This document shows, one piece after another, positions 23,949-63,299 of a stretch of 64,000 bases of DNA. The stretch covers positions 1,856,001 to 1,920,000 of the forward strand of contig CBDANS010000007.1 in assembly GCA_965197745.1 (NCBI GenBank), given 5' to 3'. This DNA comes from Opitutales bacterium. Its GTDB lineage: Bacteria > Verrucomicrobiota > Verrucomicrobiia > Opitutales > PNEW01. The notes beneath the pieces are model-generated. The model saw only the letters and a list, made by a program, of their open reading frames with translations. It was not told the DNA's origin and made no database searches. Each line of letters begins with the position of its first letter. Position 1 is the stretch's first letter. Made by a program: the position numbers and the translations under genes.

Positions 23949-25562
23949 ACTTTAATTCAAAAGTATCGCCAGCTATAAGAGTGACAGGGGATCAAAACTT
24001 AAAAGGCGCTAATTCATCTACACGATTGACAGGAGGAATAAGTGAAAACGCCTGCCGCCTTTTCCTTGTGAGTCGGGAATGGTTACACCATCCAGCCGGT
24101 ACAGATTGAGTTTGTTGCGTAAGGTACGAACGTTCACCTTTAATAATTTCGCGGCATGGGTTCGGTTTCCTCGAGTTACTTTCAGCGCGCGCAATATTTG
24201 TGCCTTCTCAATTTCTACCAGGGAGACTACTTCGTCTGCTCTCGCTGTGGATCTCACCCTTTCCAACTCTTTAATACGGGCTGAGACAGAGTATAAATGA
24301 TCATTGTCTTCAAGGGCAACCTGATCACTATGTCGTGAAGAATTTAGACCAAATGATACTGCATCGAGGGTGCCACCATTTCCTGACATGATAACCGCTC
24401 GCTCAACAGCATTCTGCAATTCTCGCACATTGCCGAGCCAATCTTGTTCCTGTAAATAATCCATTGCTTCAGGCGATATCCCGCTGATTTTCACCCCATG
24501 CTTGGGAGCGGCCGCTTAGCAAAATACGTCGCTAATTGAATAATATCTGATCTACGCTCCCTGAGGGGAGGATTGTTAATAGGGAAAACATTTAACCGGT
24601 AAAATAGATCCTGGCGAAATTCTCCTTTTTCAACACATTGCACAAGATTGCGATTAGTCGTGGCTAGAACACGAACATCCACCTTGATCGTTTTATTGCC
24701 ACCAACACGTTCAAATTCGCGTTCTTGCAATACACGGAGAAGTTTAGCCTGCAGAACGGGTGATATCTCACTGACTTCATCGAGCAGAATGGATCCGCCA
24801 TTAGCCAGTTCAAATCGACCCTCCCGACGCGCCATAGCACCGGTGAAGGCTCCTTTCTCATGGCCAAAAAATTCACTCTCTATAAGGGAATCTGAAATAG
24901 ATGCACAATTCACCTTGGTAAATGCTTTCCCGTCGCGGGAGCTGCCCTTATGAATTTCATTTGCTACGAGTTCTTTACCGGTCCCACTTTCACCTTGAAT
25001 GAGTACCGTGGCTTCTGTGGGTGCTACTTTTTTGATGAGTCTCCGCAGATTTTTAATAGCCGGACTGCTCCCGAGAATCCCGGTATCGTGGTCAACACCC
25101 TGACTGTAAAAACGGTTCAAGCTGAGAATATGACTATAATCCTCCGCTTTATTAATGATAATATCAATCTGGCTGTGATTGGACCCCGTTTTTCGTACCA
25201 ATTATTAAGTGAGAGAGTTCCCGGGTATTAATGGTTTTAGGATTGATGTATATGAGAGATCTTGGCGAAGTGAGGGCGTAGCCCGAACGCGGCCAAGATC
25301 TGAAAGGAATGTGACAAACTCTTGTGGGCTTTTAAAGCCTAAACGACTGTGGGGATGATCATGGTTATAGGTCTGGCGCCATTGTTCGATTACAACTTGT
25401 GCTTCAGCCACGCTGAGCAACACTTCACGGTTCAAACACTCATCGCGTAAGCGGTTGTGAAACGACTCGATGAAACCGTTTTGCCAGGGACTGCCCGGAT
25501 CGATATATATCGCCTTGATCTTTTTGTCGGACAACGACTGCTGCACCTGATGAGCAATGAAT

Positions 25563-25594
25563 GGCTTCGCATGTCGTCGCTTCGCTCCTCGGAA
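25563..25594 (-). repeat. 32-nt hairpin micro-insert in the SDNGS-E-F codon of A1
   Basis: TTCCGAGGAGCGAAGCGACGACATGCGAAGCC on the coding strand. Confidence 0.9.
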
Positions 25595-25722
25595 CACTGC
25601 CGTTGTCACTACGGATATAGCTGGGAGCTCCCTCCTTTTCAATGGCCTCGCTAAGCACAGAGAGGACATCCGATGAGGGGAGTTCACGAGCGACCCGGAT
25701 ATCCAGACATTCACGCGTATAT

Positions 25723-25765
25723 GGCTTCGCTTCGCTTGAGTGTCGTCGCTTTCAGCTCCTCGGTA
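25723..25765 (-). repeat. 43-nt hairpin micro-insert in the D-E-YTR codon of A1
   Basis: TACCGAGGAGCTGAAAGCGACGACACTCAAGCGAAGCGAAGCC on the coding strand. Confidence 0.9.
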
Positions 25766-27177
25766 CATCGATCAGAGTCATCATCTTTAATGGACCGCCA
25801 TGGTCTGTGCGATCATGGACAAAGTCCCAGGACCAAAGGTGATTGCGACCGGTTGCTTTAGTAGGCGACCCCGTAGAGACCCCTTGACGGTGTCTACGCT
25901 TTTTAGGTGGCTTTACCTGCAACCCTTCTGAACGTCGTACCGCCTGAACAAACTTCCTGTTTGTTGTCCAGCCTTCCTTTACGAGCAAGGCACGGATGCG
26001 CCGGTAACCGTAGCAGGGATGTTCCCAGGACAGGGTTATAATCCGCTCGGCCAACCGCTGAGCTTTCTTACTGGCCTGCTTGGGCTGGTAGCTGAAAGTT
26101 GACCAACTGAGGCTGAGGTAGGAACAAGCCCTTCGCAACGAGCACAGCCCTCTCTCAGCCGCATCTTTTACTACTCGCTTCTTCTGCTTGGGGCTCACCA
26201 CTTTTTTGACAGCGTTTCCTCCATTACCTGATTCTTAAGCATTTGATCAGCGAGCATCTTCTTCAACTCGGTGTTTTCTTTTTCCAGCTCTTTAAATCGC
26301 TTCGCATCGGCTAGTTCCAAATTGCCATACTTTTTACCCCAGCGATAGAAGGTCTGTTCACTCACGTTGTTGCCTCGGCAGATTTCCTCTACCGTTTTTC
26401 CGGTATCGGCTTGCCGCAGTATTGCGATGATCTGTTCTGTTGTGTATCTTTTTCTTTTCATGAGGTTATCTGTTTATCCCGATAACCTCTCTCTGTTAAT
26501 GATACCATTTTTGGGGGTCACTCCAGCTGGTTGAAAATGGTTTGATAATATAATCAAAAGCACCTTCCCGCATACAATAGACAGCAGATTCAACCGAGGC
26601 GTAACCTGTCATCATGACTATCAATGGGGCATTCGGAGCTTTCGACAAGATGCGAAGCAAATCAGTACCGTCACCATCCGGTAATCTTACATCCATGAAG
26701 ACAAGGTCGAACAATTCATTTCTCAAAGTGCGTTCAGCGCTGGCAATAGTGTCCGCTGTTGCGATACTGCGTACTTTATTTGACAGTTGTTCTTCCATCG
26801 ACCTTCGAACCGCAAATTCGTCGTCGATCACTAATATTTTCTCTATGGCCATAAGCACGCCTTTTAGGGACAAAGGGTGTTTTACATTTTTTTTAACGTT
26901 AGGTCTATTGTTAGTTGATAAAAATTTTAAGGTTAATGGCGAGACGCGTATTGCCTTCAAATATCCCGGTTTAAAGCATTGGCATGATGCAATAAATAAC
27001 GTTGAAGTTCGTAAATTGTTGGTATTGTGGATAAAAAAACAAATTTTACATTTCCATAAACACTAATTTAGAAAATCAGTTATAAGGGTTGCATTACCAA
27101 AGTGAAATTTTAGATAATAAGAGACACTGCCATCGAACCGTAATTATTGAGATAACGCCCCAATAAAATACCGAGAA

Positions 27178-45000: not shown

Positions 45001-45265
45001 TTGAATATGAAAGACTTACCATACAGATTTCGTGAACAAAGTTTTCGGCGATTCGAGCCTCACATCAATGACATCGTTAATTGCTTTCCTGAGCCAATTG
45101 TCATTGATCCATCTCCGCTTTCCCAGGTCACTTTTTCATGTAGGCTTCGAGACGCCATAAAGTCGCTAAGCGAAAACCGCTGGCCGACTGATATCAATAT
45201 GGAGCGGTTCGATATTATTTACCCTAACATCGTGGTTTGCGAAGGACTGGGTGAAGTTAGAGTGG
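45001..45265 (+). pseudogene. Island hypothetical ORF truncated by IS-B1
   Basis: ORF runs into the IS left end at 45266. Confidence 0.55.
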
Positions 45266-46552
45266 TGGTCGTGACCACGAAAACTGGTCCACTTGAAAAG
45301 TTAGTCTGGTCCAACTAGAAAGGACACAGACAATGAAAGGCAAAAGATACACGACCGAAGAGAAAATACGGATGCTGCGCCAGGCGGACAAAGGGAAAAC
45401 GATCCTGGAAGCATGCCGCGAGAACAACATAAGCGAACAGACCTTCCACCGCTGGAAACGTGAGTTTGGGATGATTGATGTCAACCAGGCCAAGCGGATG
45501 AAGGAGCTCTTTGAAGGAGAACGCGCGGTTAAAACGGATGCTGGCGGACAAGATGCTGGGGATAGAGATCCTGCAGGAGACCCTCGAAAAAAAACTGTAA
45601 GCCCTGGGCACAAGCGGCAAGTGGCAGAGAGACTTGTGACTCGGGGCCAGTGTTCGATGCGAGCGGGGTGCCGGTACTTTCGGCTGCACCGTTCCACCTA
45701 TGCGTATAGGGCCAAGCATCCGGATGCCTGGCTAACGAAACTAAAAGCGGCAGTAAGGCGGTTATCACGGCAATACGCGAGGTGGGGCTATCCCAAGATC
45801 ACGAAGCTGTTGAAGGACGAAGGCTGGCAGGTGGGTAAACGTCTCGTGCAAGGTCTGCGACGTGAACTGGGTCTGGCGATCCCCCCACGCAAGCCAAGAC
45901 GCCGGCGCAGGGGTGTCTGCACCGGGCTACCGACAAAGGCCGAACATCCCGACCATGTTTGGACCTGGGATTTTATCCACGATAAGACGGTTCGCGGCGG
46001 CAGTCTAAAAATGCTGACCGTGCTCGATGAGTACACCCGCGAGTGCCGGGTGATCCATGTTGATCGCCATATCAATGCGGAAACGGTGCGCGGTATCATG
46101 CAAAAACTGCTCGACCGGCATGGGCCGCCAAAATATATTCGTAGCGACAACGGTTCCGAGTTTATTGAAAGCCAATTGAGAGCCTGGCTAACTGCGATGA
46201 AAATCAAAACCCTCTATATCGAACCAGCAAGCCCTTGGCAGAACGGATACATTGAATCGTTCCATGCCCGTTTTCGCGAGGAGTGTTTAAACCGTGAACA
46301 GTTATGGACTTTGACCGAAGCCCGCGTGGTCATCGAAGATTGGCGCTGGCTTTACAATCATGTCCGACCCCACCGCAGCCTCGGCAACATCACTCCACGG
46401 CACTTCACTGAAAACCTCAATACCGAAGGCTCGGGCTCCATTCGGGCTACGCCCTCATTGCGCCCAAGCCTTGACTTCCTCTACCAACTTAACTTCAACA
46501 TTAACCTCTCCAGACTAACTCTCCCGGTGGACCAGTTTGTGTAACCCGACCA
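45266..46552 (+). mobile_element. IS3-family (IS407-like) element type B, copy B1 (no micro-insert)
   Basis: IRs TGGTCGTGACCACGAAAACTGGTCCAC / GTGGACCAGTTTGTGTAACCCGACCA; intact WTWDF, DEYTRE, SDNGSEF, NGYIESF; a +1 change at 45510-45512 fuses orfA and orfB (45333-46544). Confidence 0.95.
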
Positions 46553-46652
46553 GTATGCATATCAATTTATTGATTTTATTTTCTGAATAAAATGTAATAA
46601 TATTAATAAGTAGGTAGTCAACTCAGTCTTTATAATGATGTTTTAAATTACT

Positions 46653-48202: not shown

Positions 48203-49519
48203 TGGTCGGGTTACACAAACTGGTCCACCGGGAGAGTTAGTCTGGAGAGGTTAATGTTGAAGTTAAGTTGGTAGAGGAAGTCAAGGCTTGGGCGCAATGA
48301 GGGCGTAGCCCGAATGGAGCCCGAGCCTTCGGTATTGAGGTTTTCAGTGAAGTGCCGTGGAGTGATGTTGCCGAGGCTGCGGTGGGGTCGGACATGATTG
48401 TAAAGCCAGCGCCAATCTTCGATGACCACGCGGGCTTCGGTCAAAGTCCATAACTGTTCACGGTTTAAACACTCCTCGCGAAAACGGGCATGGAACGATT
48501 CAATGTATCCGTTCTGCCAAGGGCTTGCTGGTTCGATATAGAGGGTTTTGATTTTCATCGCAGTTAGCCAGGCTCTCAATTGGCTTTCAATGAATGGCTT
48601 TGCATGTCGTCGCTTCGCTCCTCGGAACGGAACCGTTGTCGCTACGAATATATTTTGGCGGCCCATGCCGGTCGAGCAGTTTTTGCATGATACCGCGCAC
48701 CGTTTCCGCATTGATATGGCGATCAACATGGATCACCCGGCACTCGCGGGTGTACTCATCGAGCACGGTCAGCATTTTTAGACTGCCGCCGCGAACCGTC
48801 TTATCGTGGATAAAATCCCAGGTCCAAACATGGTCGGGATGTTCGGCCTTTGTCGGTAGCCCGGTGCAGACACCCCTGCGCCGGCGTCTTGGCTTGCGTG
48901 GGGGGATCGCCAGACCCAGTTCACGTCGCAGACCTTGCACGAGACGTTTACCCACCTGCCAGCCTTCGTCCTTCAACAGCTTCGTGATCTTGGGATAGCC
49001 CCACCTCGCGTATTGCCGTGATAACCGCCTTACTGCCGCTTTTAGTTTCGTTAGCCAGGCATCCGGATGCTTGGCCCTATACGCATAGGTGGAACGGTGC
49101 AGCCGAAAGTACCGGCACCCCGCTCGCATCGAACACTGGCCCCGAGTCACAAGTCTCTCTGCCACTTGCCGCTTGTGCCCAGGGCTTACAGTTTTTTTTC
49201 GAGGGTCTCCTGCAGGATCTCTATCCCCAGCATCTTGTCCGCCAGCATCCGTTTTAACCGCGCGTTCTCCTTCTCGAGCTCCTTCATCCGCTTGGCCTGG
49301 TTGACATCAATCATCCCAAACTCACGTTTCCAGCGGTGGAAGGTCTGTTCGCTTATGTTGTTCTCGCGGCATGCTTCCAGGATCGTTTTCCCTTTGTCCG
49401 CCTGGCGCAGCATCCGTATTTTCTCTTCGGTCGTGTATCTTTTGCCTTTCATTGTCTGTGTCCTTTCTAGTTGGACCAGACTAACTTTTCAAGTGGACCA
49501 GTTTTCGTGGTCACGACCA
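48203..49519 (-). mobile_element. IS3-family element type B, copy B2 (one micro-insert)
   Basis: Inverted near-identical copy of B1; orfA 49186-49452 intact; A-run slip site; 1317 bp vs 1287 bp for B1. Confidence 0.95.
48596..48627 (-). repeat. 32-nt hairpin micro-insert in the SDNGS-E-F codon of B2
   Basis: TTCCGAGGAGCGAAGCGACGACATGCAAAGCC; absent from B1 (46141-46170). Confidence 0.92.
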
Positions 49520-50158: not shown

Positions 50159-51300
50159 ACAGTTATATCAGGCAATGAATCGAGAGCTTTCCGCTTCGCT
50201 TCATCTTCTATATGTGTATAATTCGCACTAATCATCTTGGATTCATGGCCAATGATATCCATCGCTACGGCTTCACTCACTCCCGCGTTTTTAAAAAGGC
50301 TAGTTGCTGTGTGTCGTAAACAATGGAAGCTGATCTCATTTACATTGCGCTTAGCAGATCGCCCCTTTCCGGTGGATTTTTTTGTTCTCGGCTTCGCGAG
50401 ACCCGATGCAACCAGTAACTCATAGAATTGGTTACTCAAAGTAGATATATTTATACAGCGTTTTAATGTTTCAAAAGCCCTGGGGAAAAGTGGCGCTTTC
50501 GGGTCATCACTTGAAGGCAGTAATTCAATCCATTCTTTTAATGGCTTAGCTAATGGGATAATCTGCCGCCGTCCTGTTTTATGAGCGGAAAGTCTTAGTT
50601 CATTTCGAATCAAATCAACATTATGCGAAGTGAGATTTGCCACATCACGAAGTCTTTGGCCGGTGTATAATCCCACCAAGATCATACCCCTCCATTCTTG
50701 ATCTGCCACTTCTAAAATTCTCTTCAATTCTGTTAATGTAAATGGCCTTCTTTCTATCATTTCCTCTCTTCTTTTAATAATTACAGTTTTGGCTGCCGGA
50801 TCATCAGCTATTAGCCCTTCGCGCCAAGCTGCTTTAAAGGCCACTCTGATAATCTTAAGCTTGCCGTTGGCTGTTACTGCAGTGCTCTTTTTAGCCGCAT
50901 TATCCCGAAAACTTGAAATATCAGCAGTAGTAATACTTGAGATATCTTGATCCGCCCTAGGTCCAATAAAATCTAGAAAATCGAGAACTGTCCCTTCATA
51001 CTTGGAAGTAGTAAGATCAGAGACTTCAACTTTTTTTGTTGCCAGCCATCTCTTAAAAAAATCACGTAGTGTTGAAGTCGGTAGAGATTTTCCGTTTATC
51101 TTTTCGTATATGTCCGATAAGACACGTCGGGCTTGTGCTTCTGTTAATTTTCGCCGGGCAGCATCTTCCCATTCGTCTGCAATAATTTGGGCATTCTTTC
51201 GGTTAACTTCTTTAGTGCTTCTTTTTGTTCTCCTACCATTCGGTAGGGTAAAGCATGCGTACCAATATTTACTTTTAGGATGTTGCCATACACTCGACAT
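50155..51300 (-). CDS. Tyrosine recombinase / phage-type integrase
   Basis: YTGQRLRD, K in HKTG, FHCLRHT, IIGHES..ANYTH; N-terminal arm-binding-like region. Confidence 0.95.
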   Translation of the reverse strand: MSSVWQHPKSKYWYACFTLPNGRRTKRSTKEVNRKNAQIIADEWEDAARRKLTEAQARRVLSDIYEKINGKSLPTSTLRDFFKRWLATKKVEVSDLTTSKYEGTVLDFLDFIGPRADQDISSITTADISSFRDNAAKKSTAVTANGKLKIIRVAFKAAWREGLIADDPAAKTVIIKRREEMIERRPFTLTELKRILEVADQEWRGMILVGLYTGQRLRDVANLTSHNVDLIRNELRLSAHKTGRRQIIPLAKPLKEWIELLPSSDDPKAPLFPRAFETLKRCINISTLSNQFYELLVASGLAKPRTKKSTGKGRSAKRNVNEISFHCLRHTATSLFKNAGVSEAVAMDIIGHESKMISANYTHIEDEAKRKALDSLPDITV

Positions 51301-60769: not shown

Positions 60770-62264
60770 ACAAGTATATATAGCTAATGACTATTAACTT
60801 TTTGTCAATGAATGAAGACACTTCCTGACCTCTACCATTCGTGAAGTTAAATTCAAAGTCTAATGAATACAAATTTTCATACTATAAATAACATTAGCCT
60901 CTTGCAAATATAAATAAATAACCTTTCATAGTCTATATCGTGACACGCATAAAACACCTTCTCAATGAGATTAATTATGAACTGGTACGTCGTTTGGCTG
61001 AAGGGGGAATGGGTGAGGTTTACGAGGCACGTCAAAACGGGATTGACCATTTTTCTAAGACCGTAGCCATTAAGTTAATTCGCGAAGAGTATTCCGCGAT
61101 AAAAGAGTTTCGTAGAAATTTTGTGGGTGAGGGCAAAACTGGTAGCAGATTTAATCCATACCAGTATCGTGCAAACCTACCATCTTGGGGAAATAGAGGG
61201 GCAGTATTTTATCGTAATGGAATATGTAAACGGCATCAATCTTGAAGAATTTCATTTTAAACATATGTCACTTCGCATTCCCATCCCTATCGATATAACC
61301 GTTTTTATTGTATCACGAGTATGCCGTGGCCTCGCCTATGCGCATACTAAATGCGATAAAGAGGGAAGACTTCTCAATATTGTCCATCGCGATGTCAACC
61401 CCAAGAACATCATGCTCGCCCATGAGGGGGATGTTAAGCTCACTGACTTCGGTATCGCGAAAGCCCTCGATCTCATGTATAACGTAGAAGGTGAAGTTAT
61501 TGCTGGAGTGACCCCCAAAAATGGTATCATTAACAGAGAGAGGTTATCGGGATAAACAGATAACCTCAATGAAAAGAAAAAGATATACAACAGAACAGAT
61601 CATAGCAATACTGCGGCAGCCCGATACGGGCAAAACCGTGCAGGAAGTCTGCCACGGCAACAACCTAAGTGAACAGACCTTCTATCGCTGGGGCAAAAAG
61701 TATGGCAACTTGGAGCTGGCTGATGCGAAGCGATTTAAAGAGCTGGAAAAGGAGAATACGGAGCTGAAGAAGATGCTCGCTGATCAAATGCTCAAGCTTC
61801 GGGTGTTGGAGGAAACGCTCTCAAAAAAATGGTGAGCCCAAAGCAGAAGAAGCGAGCAGTAAAAGATGCGGCTGAGAAGGGGCTGTGCTCGTTTTAGAGG
61901 GCTTGTGCTTATCTCAGCCTCAGTTGGTCAACGTACAGCTACCGACCCAAGCAGGCCAGTAAGAAGGCTCAGCAATTGGCCGAGCGGATTTTGACCTTGT
62001 CCTGGGAACATCCCCGTTACGGTTACCGGCGCATTCGTGCCTTGCTGGTGAAAGAAGGTTGGGCGGCAAGCAGGAAATTTGTACAGGCAGTGCGACGTTC
62101 TTCGGGCTTACAGGTAAAGCCCCCGAAAAAGCGTAGACACCGTCAGGGGATCTCTACTGGGCTCCCTACTAAAGCAACCGGTCGCAATCACGTCTGGTCC
62201 TGGGACTTTGTCCATGATCGTACAGACAATGGCGGTATGCTAAAGATGATGACCTTGATCGATG

Positions 62265-62307
62265 TACCGAGGAGCTGAAAGCGACGACACTCAAGCGAAG
62301 CGAAGAC
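62265..62307 (+). repeat. 43-nt micro-insert in the D-E-YTR codon of A2
   Basis: TACCGAGGAGCTGAAAGCGACGACACTCAAGCGAAGCGAAGAC (1 difference from A1). Confidence 0.9.
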
Positions 62308-62435
62308 ATATACGCGTAAATGTTTACGCATCCGGGTAGCTCGACAGCTCACCTCAACCGATGTTCTCTCGGTACTCAGCGAAACCATCGATGAAGAGGG
62401 AGTTCCTAGCTATATCCGCAGTGACAACGGCAGTG

Positions 62436-62467
62436 TTCCGAGGAGCGAAGCGACGACATGCGAAGCC
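62436..62467 (+). repeat. 32-nt micro-insert in the SDNGS-E-F codon of A2
   Basis: Identical to the A1 insert. Confidence 0.9.
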
Positions 62468-63272
62468 ATTCATTGCTCATCAGGTGCAGCAGTGGTTGTC
62501 CGACAAAAAGATCAAGGCGATATATATCGATCCGGGCAGTCCCTGGCAAAACGGTTTCATCGAGTCGTTTCACAACCGCTTACGCGATGAGTGTTTGAAC
62601 CGTGAAGTGTTGCTCAGCGTGGCTGAAGCGCAAGTGCTAATAGAACAATGGCGTCAGACCTATAACAATGAACATCCCCACAGTCGATTAGGCTTTAAAA
62701 GCCCACAAGAGTTTGTCACATTCCTTTCCGCTCTTGGCCGCGTTCGGGCTACGCCCTCACTGCGCCAAGATCTCTCATATACATCAATCCTAAAACCATT
62801 AACACCCGGTAGTTCTCTCACTTAAAATTTGATACGAAATACGGGGTCCGATCATTGCTGGTAAAGATGAATACCTATCCCCGGAACAGGTTCGACGAGA
62901 TGTAACAGATGCCCGGGCTGATATTTTTTCATGTGGTATCGTATTAGCGGAATTGCTCCTCGATAATAATATTTTTGAAGAAGATCATCCCAAGTTGACC
63001 CGCAAGAATATCCTCAAAATGCCAATACCGGATTTTACAAAATTGCGCTCTGATATAGATCCTAAACTGAACGAAATCCTTCATAAAACTTTTCAGCGGG
63101 ACCGCAAGAAACGATACCAAAGTGCCGCTGAATTACTCACCGCCCTGGAAGTTTACCTCTATAGTGATGGTTATGGACCTACCATTGAAAAATTAGCGGA
63201 TTATTTGCGTAATTTATTTTCCGATAAAAAACCCGAGGCCTTAACCCATCAGTCGACGGGACCTTCTTCTTG

Positions 63273-63299
63273 ATATAATTTATATAATTTATATAATTT
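63273..63299 (+). repeat. (ATATAATTT)x3 upstream of rpoN
   Basis: Three exact 9-mers, each containing TATAAT. Confidence 0.85.

Follow-up and report, generated by a model that had tools for sequence, protein, structure and literature searches.

Short repeat modules inserted at conserved codons of IS3-family transposase genes in an Opitutales genome, with relatives in tRNA-linked units

The stretch of DNA analysed here (64,000 nucleotides, named the window) corresponds to positions 1856001-1920000 of contig C7 in the source genome of an Opitutales bacterium (named G000; 4.45 Mb in 7 contigs, with a 92%-complete assembly). Copies of IS3-family elements, most of them carrying short inserts within the transposase gene, are found in the window at the following positions, which are those of the window unless a contig is named.

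61504-62854, + strand: IS3-family element of type A1, 1351 bp, OrfA followed by OrfB in pieces (bounds from blastn copy limits, the ends and the TTGC target duplication)
61895-61897, + strand: TAG stop in the type A1 OrfB at a conserved Arg codon (TCG TTT TAG AGG; type A2 reads CGA)
62265-62307, + strand: 43-nt insert at site 1 (L-I-D-[E]-Y-T-R) of the type A1 copy, in frame (+42) with TGA at 62276-62278, delimited by filled/empty comparison
62436-62467, + strand: 32-nt insert at site 2 (S-D-N-G-S-[E]-F) of the type A1 copy, net +31, a frameshift; matched by model R1, built from tRNA-linked units (E 4.3e-5)
25176-26527, - strand: IS3-family element of type A2, ~90% identical to A1 (C7:1881176-1882527)
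25723-25765, - strand: 43-nt insert at site 1 of the type A2 copy, a variant with the end GAAGCC
25563-25594, - strand: 32-nt insert at site 2 of the type A2 copy
48203-49519, - strand: IS3-family element of type B1, filled, its single ORF cut after ...SDNGSVPRSEATTCKAIH
48596-48627, - strand: 32-nt insert at site 2 of the filled type B1 copy, variant GCAAAGCC
45264-46553, + strand: IS3-family element of type B1, empty, one 415-codon open frame, with the empty-site GAG at 46158-46160

Both element types belong to the IS3 family, in agreement with an earlier note on this DNA that had named an IS3-family OrfB as the host. Type A is 1351 bp long and contains OrfA and OrfB, and type B is around 1290 bp with one long frame. 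The pieces of the type A1 OrfB match the IS3 transposase model NF033516 at positions 137-240 (E 2.5e-17) and 287-368 (E 1.2e-25); because the gene is fragmented, each of them falls short of the cut-off set for the whole protein. IS3 elements have terminal inverted repeats TG...CA and generate a 3-4 bp target duplication; type A1 ends in TGGAGTGACC...GGTCCGATCA and is flanked by TTGC in the window copy and by CTCA and CTTT in two others. Around 14 copies of A1 are at least 98.4% identical to each other, and clean 4-bp duplications were identified at three of the nine copies whose flanks were inspected. No intact transposase source for type A was found in the 92%-complete G000 assembly, and four intact, empty B1 copies with the 415-codon open frame are present in this genome. 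The window A1 copy interrupts a Ser/Thr-kinase-like ORF (61121-61555 and 62953-63273), the TTGC duplication flanking the copy. A tyrosine recombinase domain match (PF00589, 61.7 bits; 50203-50739, - strand) lies ~1.2 kb from the filled B1 copy.

The five inserts described in the earlier note were recovered with the same positions and sequences, and the pattern CCGAGGAGC-N3-6-GCGACGAC finds five matches in the window against none in 100 dinucleotide shuffles. In the module, the 5' tag T(T/A)CCGAG is combined with GCGAAGC and with one or two mini-stems rich in GA. Searched with a relaxed version of the motif, the whole G000 genome yields 129 matches, distributed over site 2 (73), site 1 (32), a third OrfB site, R-L-R-D-[E]-C-L-N (14), GTCATT repeats (6), tRNA-linked positions (3) and one other place. 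The genome-wide tabulation of host gene and codon that the earlier note had proposed thus places 119 of the 129 matches at OrfB sites 1-3, and every one of these 119 lies on the OrfB sense strand. A related 43-nt insert, missed by the initial pattern, occupies a Gln codon at a fourth site (P-W-[Q]-N-G), in frame and without a stop; its 15-mer has 17 matches, 13 of them in the full P-W-[Q]-N-G context. The statement that inserts occur at only two sites therefore stands for the window, but not for the genome with its third and fourth sites. An unbiased scan for 18-70 nt indels between G000 repeats at least 85% identical returned 83 filled places, of which 80 fall at the four OrfB sites. At least one insert is present in 79 of the 95 OrfB loci of the genome, namely in 38 of the 39 loci of A-like type, the remaining one being truncated, in 39 of the 45 B-like loci and in 2 of the 11 distant loci. 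The exact motif has a narrow distribution, being found in 5 of 41 relatives and in 2 of 401 genomes sampled from the class. A 15-base pattern scan of the contigs of other genomes gave at least 118 loci among the matches listed, nearly all of them chance matches in high-GC genomes, with one relevant locus (L077).

Comparison of near-identical filled and empty copies revealed that every insert replaces one base, so that N/A/R becomes N[T...C]A (slashes mark the junctions). The four sites read as follows.

Site 1: empty GATG/AA/TAT, filled GATG[43]A TAT, net +42
Site 2: empty AGTG/AA or AG/TTC, filled G[32]A TTC, net +31
Site 3 (R-L-R-D-[E]-C-L-N): empty GATG/AG/TGT, filled G[36]A TGT, net +35
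Site 4 (P-W-[Q]-N-G): empty TGGC/A/AAAC, filled C[43]AAAC, net +42

The coding-strand placement, the G...A junction and the lack of a target duplication described earlier all hold, and no target duplication was seen between filled and empty copies at any of sites 1-4, where the inserts thus have neither the terminal inverted repeats nor the target-site duplication that mark a MITE. The coding consequences are likewise as described, with a +31 frameshift for the 32-mer and an in-frame +42 with a TGA for the 43-mer. The empty B1 site reads TCC GAG TTT, as the earlier note gave it, and the filled B1 copy differs from it by TTT to TTC adjoining the insert. The placement within Glu codons applies to sites 1-3 and is too narrow as a rule; the insert in a Gln codon and the T-loop sites described below indicate that the rule is not Glu-specific. 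The description as hairpins is weak by folding with a DNA nearest-neighbour model, in which the inserts do no better than shuffles (minimum free energies of -0.8 to -4.5 kcal/mol, z-scores of -1.2 to +1.2) and which does not score sheared G.A mini-hairpins.

One of the two readings offered earlier was a removable or bypassed micro-intron, by which the insert would leave the mRNA or the DNA, or the ribosome would hop over it, and filled IS copies would still make transposase. This reading would account for the filled state of all full-length A-like copies, given that A1 looks recently mobile, and is consistent with the sense-only orientation, with A2 and B2 being open apart from their inserts, and with inserts far better conserved than their flanks in transposases with dN/dS of 0.13-0.21. 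However, each insert replaces one base, so exact removal would leave a 1-nt deletion at every site and would not restore the codon. The net lengths of +31, +35, +42 and +42 cover all three frame classes, and among the ribosomal hopping and +1/-1 frameshift schemes that were worked by eye, each can account for one site at most. Reading the insert sequences by eye revealed neither an open frame common to the inserts nor take-off codons matched by landing codons. Besides the weak folding, the Rfam search of the IS region returned no matching family for the inserts, RtT included, and one unrelated weak match. Moreover, A1 carries the extra TAG, B1 copies that are 99.5-100% identical differ in being filled or empty, non-coding units linked to tRNA genes contain the same module, and the intact empty B1 copies could drive B-type copies in trans. 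The one-base replacement, the mixed frame classes, the lack of an Rfam match and the failure of any frame repair at more than one site led us to reject the intron or bypass reading, which we consider very improbable.

The inserts are more alike than the genes that carry them. The earlier note had reported the same insert in two different IS types, and indeed the 32-mers of A1 and B2 are identical at 32 of 32 positions, with 90-nt flanks matching at 40/90 and 55/90. Between A1 and A2, the inserts are identical or one base apart, while three OrfB segments have dS values of 0.54, 0.90 and 0.14 at dN/dS of 0.13-0.21. The low dN/dS indicates that the genes were functional during their divergence, and hence that the inserts came later or laterally. 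The 43-mer, which is adjoined by the segments with dS of 0.54 and 0.90, is also found in lineages that are B-like or more distant still and whose flanks have diverged. Judged from these sequence comparisons, the inserts appear to have arrived at homologous sites after divergence, with very short co-converted flanks such as the TTC in place of TTT beside the B1 insert. Recombinant copies joined at inserts were identified as well: a mosaic IS copy (C7:1673280-1674710) has A-like ends and a B2-like patch whose limits coincide exactly with its site-2 and site-4 inserts, and it additionally carries site-1 and site-3 inserts, and A/B chimeras joined at the 32-mer occur in G000 and in another genome, G001. 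Collectively, the identity of inserts among IS lineages with diverged flanks points to lateral spread that is selective for sites, with IS copies carrying the inserts along as hitch-hikers.

Part of this pattern might stem from a small number of untargeted chance insertions into ancestral IS copies, which were then inherited and homogenised by ordinary gene conversion. The insert variant differs from site to site, as expected if every site had a single founder, the dS of 0.14 in the 3' segment of A1 and A2 suggests conversion, and chimeric copies exist. The 43-mer, however, is alike in A1 and A2 between two strongly diverged segments and recurs in lineages with diverged flanks, and the founder sites all share the N/A/R form, the sense strand and a location in transposase genes. 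A relative at a Glu codon of another transposase domain, DUF772, and the recurrence of the core at T-loop sites in many unrelated contigs argue further against chance, and we regard this explanation as improbable.

The inserts might instead be kept by the IS elements themselves as a means of self-limitation, since truncated transposases composed of the DNA-binding part and an incomplete DDE core may inhibit transposition. The 300-codon open N-terminal frame retained by filled B-type copies and the conservation of the inserts are in line with this idea. The inhibitor is putative, though, A1 is cut much earlier by its TAG, several sites and frames are in use, and the same module is present in non-coding contexts, so that we give self-limitation only a slight chance of being correct.

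The non-coding contexts include tRNA-linked units, which enabled us to compare the module with a known repeat family. In G000, units directly after tRNA-Asn and tRNA-Gln have the layout GGCAGGAUGAGAA, hairpin, GGUUCG / core / AUCC, tRNA 3' end, and each ends in the 3' end plus CCA of the tRNA it follows, as RtT repeats do. The core is thereby placed as GGTTCG/core/ATCC, at a junction that we take to be T-loop G57/A58, and a T-loop-like 5' flank is found at 17 of 27 metagenome loci. The Rfam RtT family (RF00391) matches the units at 23.7 bits (E 0.09) and 18 bits, short of the gathering cut-off of 45 bits. A covariance model trained on nine tRNA-linked units, with no E. coli sequences and no IS inserts, recovers all five window inserts. 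The same model detects four units in the E. coli tyrT region, one of which lies in the spacer that separates the two tRNA-Tyr genes (E 2.4e-4), the other three being the downstream rtT repeats (E 0.024-0.074). Detection thus works in both directions, from Rfam RtT to the G000 units and from the tRNA-unit model to E. coli; blastn of a tRNA-linked unit against E. coli genomes gave no match. The E. coli tyrT repeats and the G000 units share the order GGAUGAGAA, small hairpin, GGUUCG, core rich in GA and containing GCGAAGC, AUCC, and then the 3' end of the adjacent tRNA, CCA included. They differ in that the G000 units score below the Rfam cut-off (23.7 vs 45 bits) and the E. coli core is longer than that of the module. 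We know of no RtT repeat inside a gene. The excerpt consulted of one recent text calls the function of RtT unknown.

Beyond IS3 elements, a 37-nt relative of the insert lies in two metagenome contigs (L198 and L221), in frame and without a stop, at a Glu codon within the transposase domain DUF772 (IS5-type), so DUF772 is a second transposase family struck by the same kind of module. A longer repeat sharing the start TACCGAGGAGC-GGAT-GCGACGAC-ACCTCAAC-GAGC... was observed in G040 (L010 and L015) and at L077, L207, L219 and L220; G040, from a different family of the same order, holds 58 copies, and tandem arrays are present in some metagenome contigs.

Small nuclease genes adjoin relatives of the module. 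In the sister genus (genome G002), a tRNA-Asn gene is followed by two tandem units, each composed of a 93-aa single-domain GIY-YIG gene and a partial tRNA-Asn copy. These partial copies carry a TCCCG..CGGGA hairpin by the anticodon loop and the insert core in the T-loop, and both core-bearing pseudo-tRNA-Asn units (2/2) stand directly behind the GIY-YIG genes. Homologues are present in 24 of 151 Opitutales genomes. Among 18 inspected homologous loci, the cassette together with a hairpin-bearing pseudo-tRNA was seen at 14 and some extra T-arm module at 9. The arrangement of GIY-YIG gene and partial tRNA looks like a tRNA-targeting cassette, in which the hairpin cognate to the nuclease is most likely TCCCG..CGGGA and not the insert core. 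The best PDB match of the small GIY-YIG protein is UPF0213 BH0048 (E 3.7e-7). In G000 there is no close copy of the G002 tRNA-Asn GIY-YIG gene, the best matches (E 3e-9) carrying stops. More broadly, small single-domain GIY-YIG genes were observed directly after tRNA-Asn, a CAT-anticodon tRNA and tRNA-Val, often in tandem, at L158/L167 (G002:C1:399196-400040), G000 C7:1845900-1846700, G000 C5:56088-56860 and L168-L182. Behind these genes comes an incomplete copy of the respective tRNA, with a TCCCG..CGGGA hairpin adjoining its anticodon loop.

Four other small GIY-YIG genes of G000 are flanked by inverted, GTCATT-tagged GTCATTGCGAGG repeats, at these positions.

C7:1542004, repeat-flanked GIY-YIG gene
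C7:1545659, repeat-flanked GIY-YIG gene
C7:483646, repeat-flanked GIY-YIG gene
C6:787949, repeat-flanked GIY-YIG gene

The inverted repeats around these genes have the centre GCGAGGAGC-NNN-GCGACG. The genome contains 166 GTCATTGCGAGG-tagged modular repeats (at most one mismatch; for example C7:1541878-1542337 and C7:1545544-1546003), none of them in the window; 86 end in plain AATCCAG, and 58 have a module of TACCGAG, a mini-hairpin and ACATCTTCC. In one of these repeats, the first 17 bases of the TACCGAG module equal the site-4 insert. Many GTCATT repeats are present in three of the five core-bearing genomes and none in the other two (G035 and G040), and two genomes have GTCATTGCGAGG repeats without the core motif (G012 with 30 copies, G015 with 23). 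No nuclease gene directly linked to insert-bearing IS copies was found, and the IS copies do not flank GIY-YIG genes.

The combination of small GIY-YIG genes and tagged repeats resembles the Ssn system (Nat Commun 2025;16:2388, PMC11893778), of which the excerpts consulted describe SsnA as a small single-domain GIY-YIG single-strand DNA nuclease with the Ssn-related motifs NTS and SRM. The likeness to the system in these excerpts lies in the short, tagged, orientation-specific repeats in tens to hundreds of copies, in the repeat-gene-repeat order around a 90-100 aa GIY-YIG gene in G000 (compare NTS-ssnA-NTS), and in the TCCCG..CGGGA hairpins by the tRNA-linked genes, which recall the NTS stem. 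Ssn-related motifs are inverted repeats of 20-50 nt that form hairpins, flank a small single-domain GIY-YIG gene (cd10448) and are cut as single-stranded DNA by their Ssn nuclease; among the sequences studied here, a GIY-YIG neighbour is seen for relatives of the insert, namely the G002 T-loop copies and the GTCATT repeats. On the other side, the published SRM pattern (PMC11893778) occurs in none of the five window inserts and none of the 166 GTCATT repeats, and its genome-wide matches are at chance level, with 12 on contig C7 against 3-11 in shuffles. The IS inserts lack a GTCAT tag and have weak predicted stems, and the Ssn paper mentions neither tRNA (0 occurrences) nor insertion into genes. 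We therefore speak of a resemblance of the module and the GIY-YIG repeats to the Ssn system, not of an established membership.

The earlier note had also suggested looking for a co-occurring HUH/RAYT or GIY-YIG gene. GIY-YIG genes do adjoin relatives of the insert, as described above, but no RAYT with flanking repeats was found. REP-like modules moved by an HUH Y1 transposase (RAYT or IS200-like) nevertheless deserve consideration, as Y1_Tnp genes are present in all five motif-bearing genomes and the bottom strand of the inserts contains GTCGTC/CGTC. Single-strand transposition of IS200/IS605 elements is strand-specific in orientation and leaves no target duplication, features that the inserts share. 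Against a role of such an enzyme, Y1_Tnp genes are common (6 of 14 control genomes), and the single such gene of G000, searched over the 1.6 kb around it, shows no inverted repeats of 14 nt or more, unlike a RAYT flanked by its REPs. Directly 5' of an IS200/IS605 element lies a fixed target of 4-5 nt. The 5' flanks of the inserts vary (ATG, GTG, CCG, GGC, TCG), so the inserts lack the fixed 5' target of an IS200/IS605-derived mini element (PATE), and the one-base replacement would stay unexplained. We consider REP/RAYT-type movement improbable, and RAYT a weaker candidate machinery than the small GIY-YIG proteins.

Repeats of the REP/BIME and REPIN kind (compare PMC3116915) are similar to the module in that they are GC-rich, very short and numerous, lack a target duplication and are probably moved in trans. 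The excerpts of another report state that IS elements target REPs (PMC1525189), the reverse of the pattern here. REPs are extragenic, whereas the module sits within transposase genes. The small dispersed repeats (SDR) of Nostoc/Anabaena, reportedly treated by Elhai et al. in 2008, are alike in being 20-45 nt modules that lie within mobile elements and within other repeats and whose filled and empty sites are clean, but belong to another sequence family and another phylum, and to our knowledge have no link to tRNA or GIY-YIG genes. Rickettsia palindromic elements are also short repeats inserted within open reading frames; they are ~100-150 bp, usually in frame and tolerated, whereas the inserts here are limited to transposase genes and in most cases disrupt the frame. 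The view of the earlier note that the inserts match no described system holds in part, because tRNA-linked repeats of the RtT type are relatives of the module, and tagged repeats of the Ssn and REP types resemble it.

The explanation we favour, with moderate confidence, is that a few founder insertions of a non-autonomous, ultra-small repeat module (32-43 nt) gave rise to the inserts. This module breaks IS3 transposase genes and would enter them site-selectively and spread by a nuclease-run process, IS hitch-hiking and conversion. This explanation agrees with the other reading of the earlier note, a site-targeted micro-element that switches transposases off, which is supported by the added stops and frameshifts, by the insert identity across lineages with diverged flanks and by the large share of filled OrfB loci. 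The usual home of the module would be a T-loop-like G/AA(T) site, both in RtT-like units linked to tRNA genes and in pseudo-tRNA copies, which lie beside genes for small single-domain GIY-YIG (Ssn-like) nucleases; the modules found within intergenic repeats with a GTCATT tag are probably its relatives. In the Opitutales lineage studied here, the module would have entered IS3 transposase genes at four short conserved S/A/R sites, where it replaces one base and breaks the reading frame. Entry into homologous sites would be a site-selective, probably single-strand-DNA process, possibly run by an Ssn-type or another hairpin-binding nuclease. The broken copies would then multiply by hitch-hiking on IS transposition driven in trans, together with short-tract conversion, and the net effect would be IS silencing.

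A broader proposal, which we offer tentatively and consider unlikely as a whole, joins the T(T/A)CCGAG module with RtT-type tRNA-linked repeats and with the small GIY-YIG cassettes linked to tRNA genes in one mobile system. An Ssn-type nuclease would paste hairpin modules into T-loop-like G/AA sites of spare tRNA copies, and in Opitutales this system, by homing to codon motifs that are short and conserved, would also have become a hyperparasite of transposase genes of the IS3 and IS5 types, or a silencer of them recruited by the host. If true, this proposal would also explain the E. coli tyrT repeats, which have long been without a mechanism, and the RtT link, if it holds, would give this classic oddity of E. 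coli a mechanistic origin. A module that homes to transposase genes would likewise be a natural silencer of insertion sequences, a parasite of a parasite. The movement of very short bacterial repeats (REP, SRM, SDR, RtT) is largely unexplained, and the locus offers dozens of clean filled/empty pairs with an odd, exact one-base rule and a strict strand rule. The small GIY-YIG genes adjoining the same module provide a concrete candidate machinery that is testable with oligonucleotides. The open-access literature that was searched held no paper on such modules within transposase genes or on tRNA-linked GIY-YIG cassettes; new here are the one-base junction rule, the non-Glu site, the apparent lateral site-selective spread, and the links to RtT-like units and GIY-YIG cassettes.

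A separate 1.35-kb element with a tyrosine integrase was observed outside the window (C7:1065044-1067412), where it cuts a B-type IS after ATC GAA TCG TT, at the catalytic I-E-S codons. It was considered as a part of the insert system and is treated as separate, as four homologous integrase copies elsewhere sit after a CCCCGTCTT hairpin.
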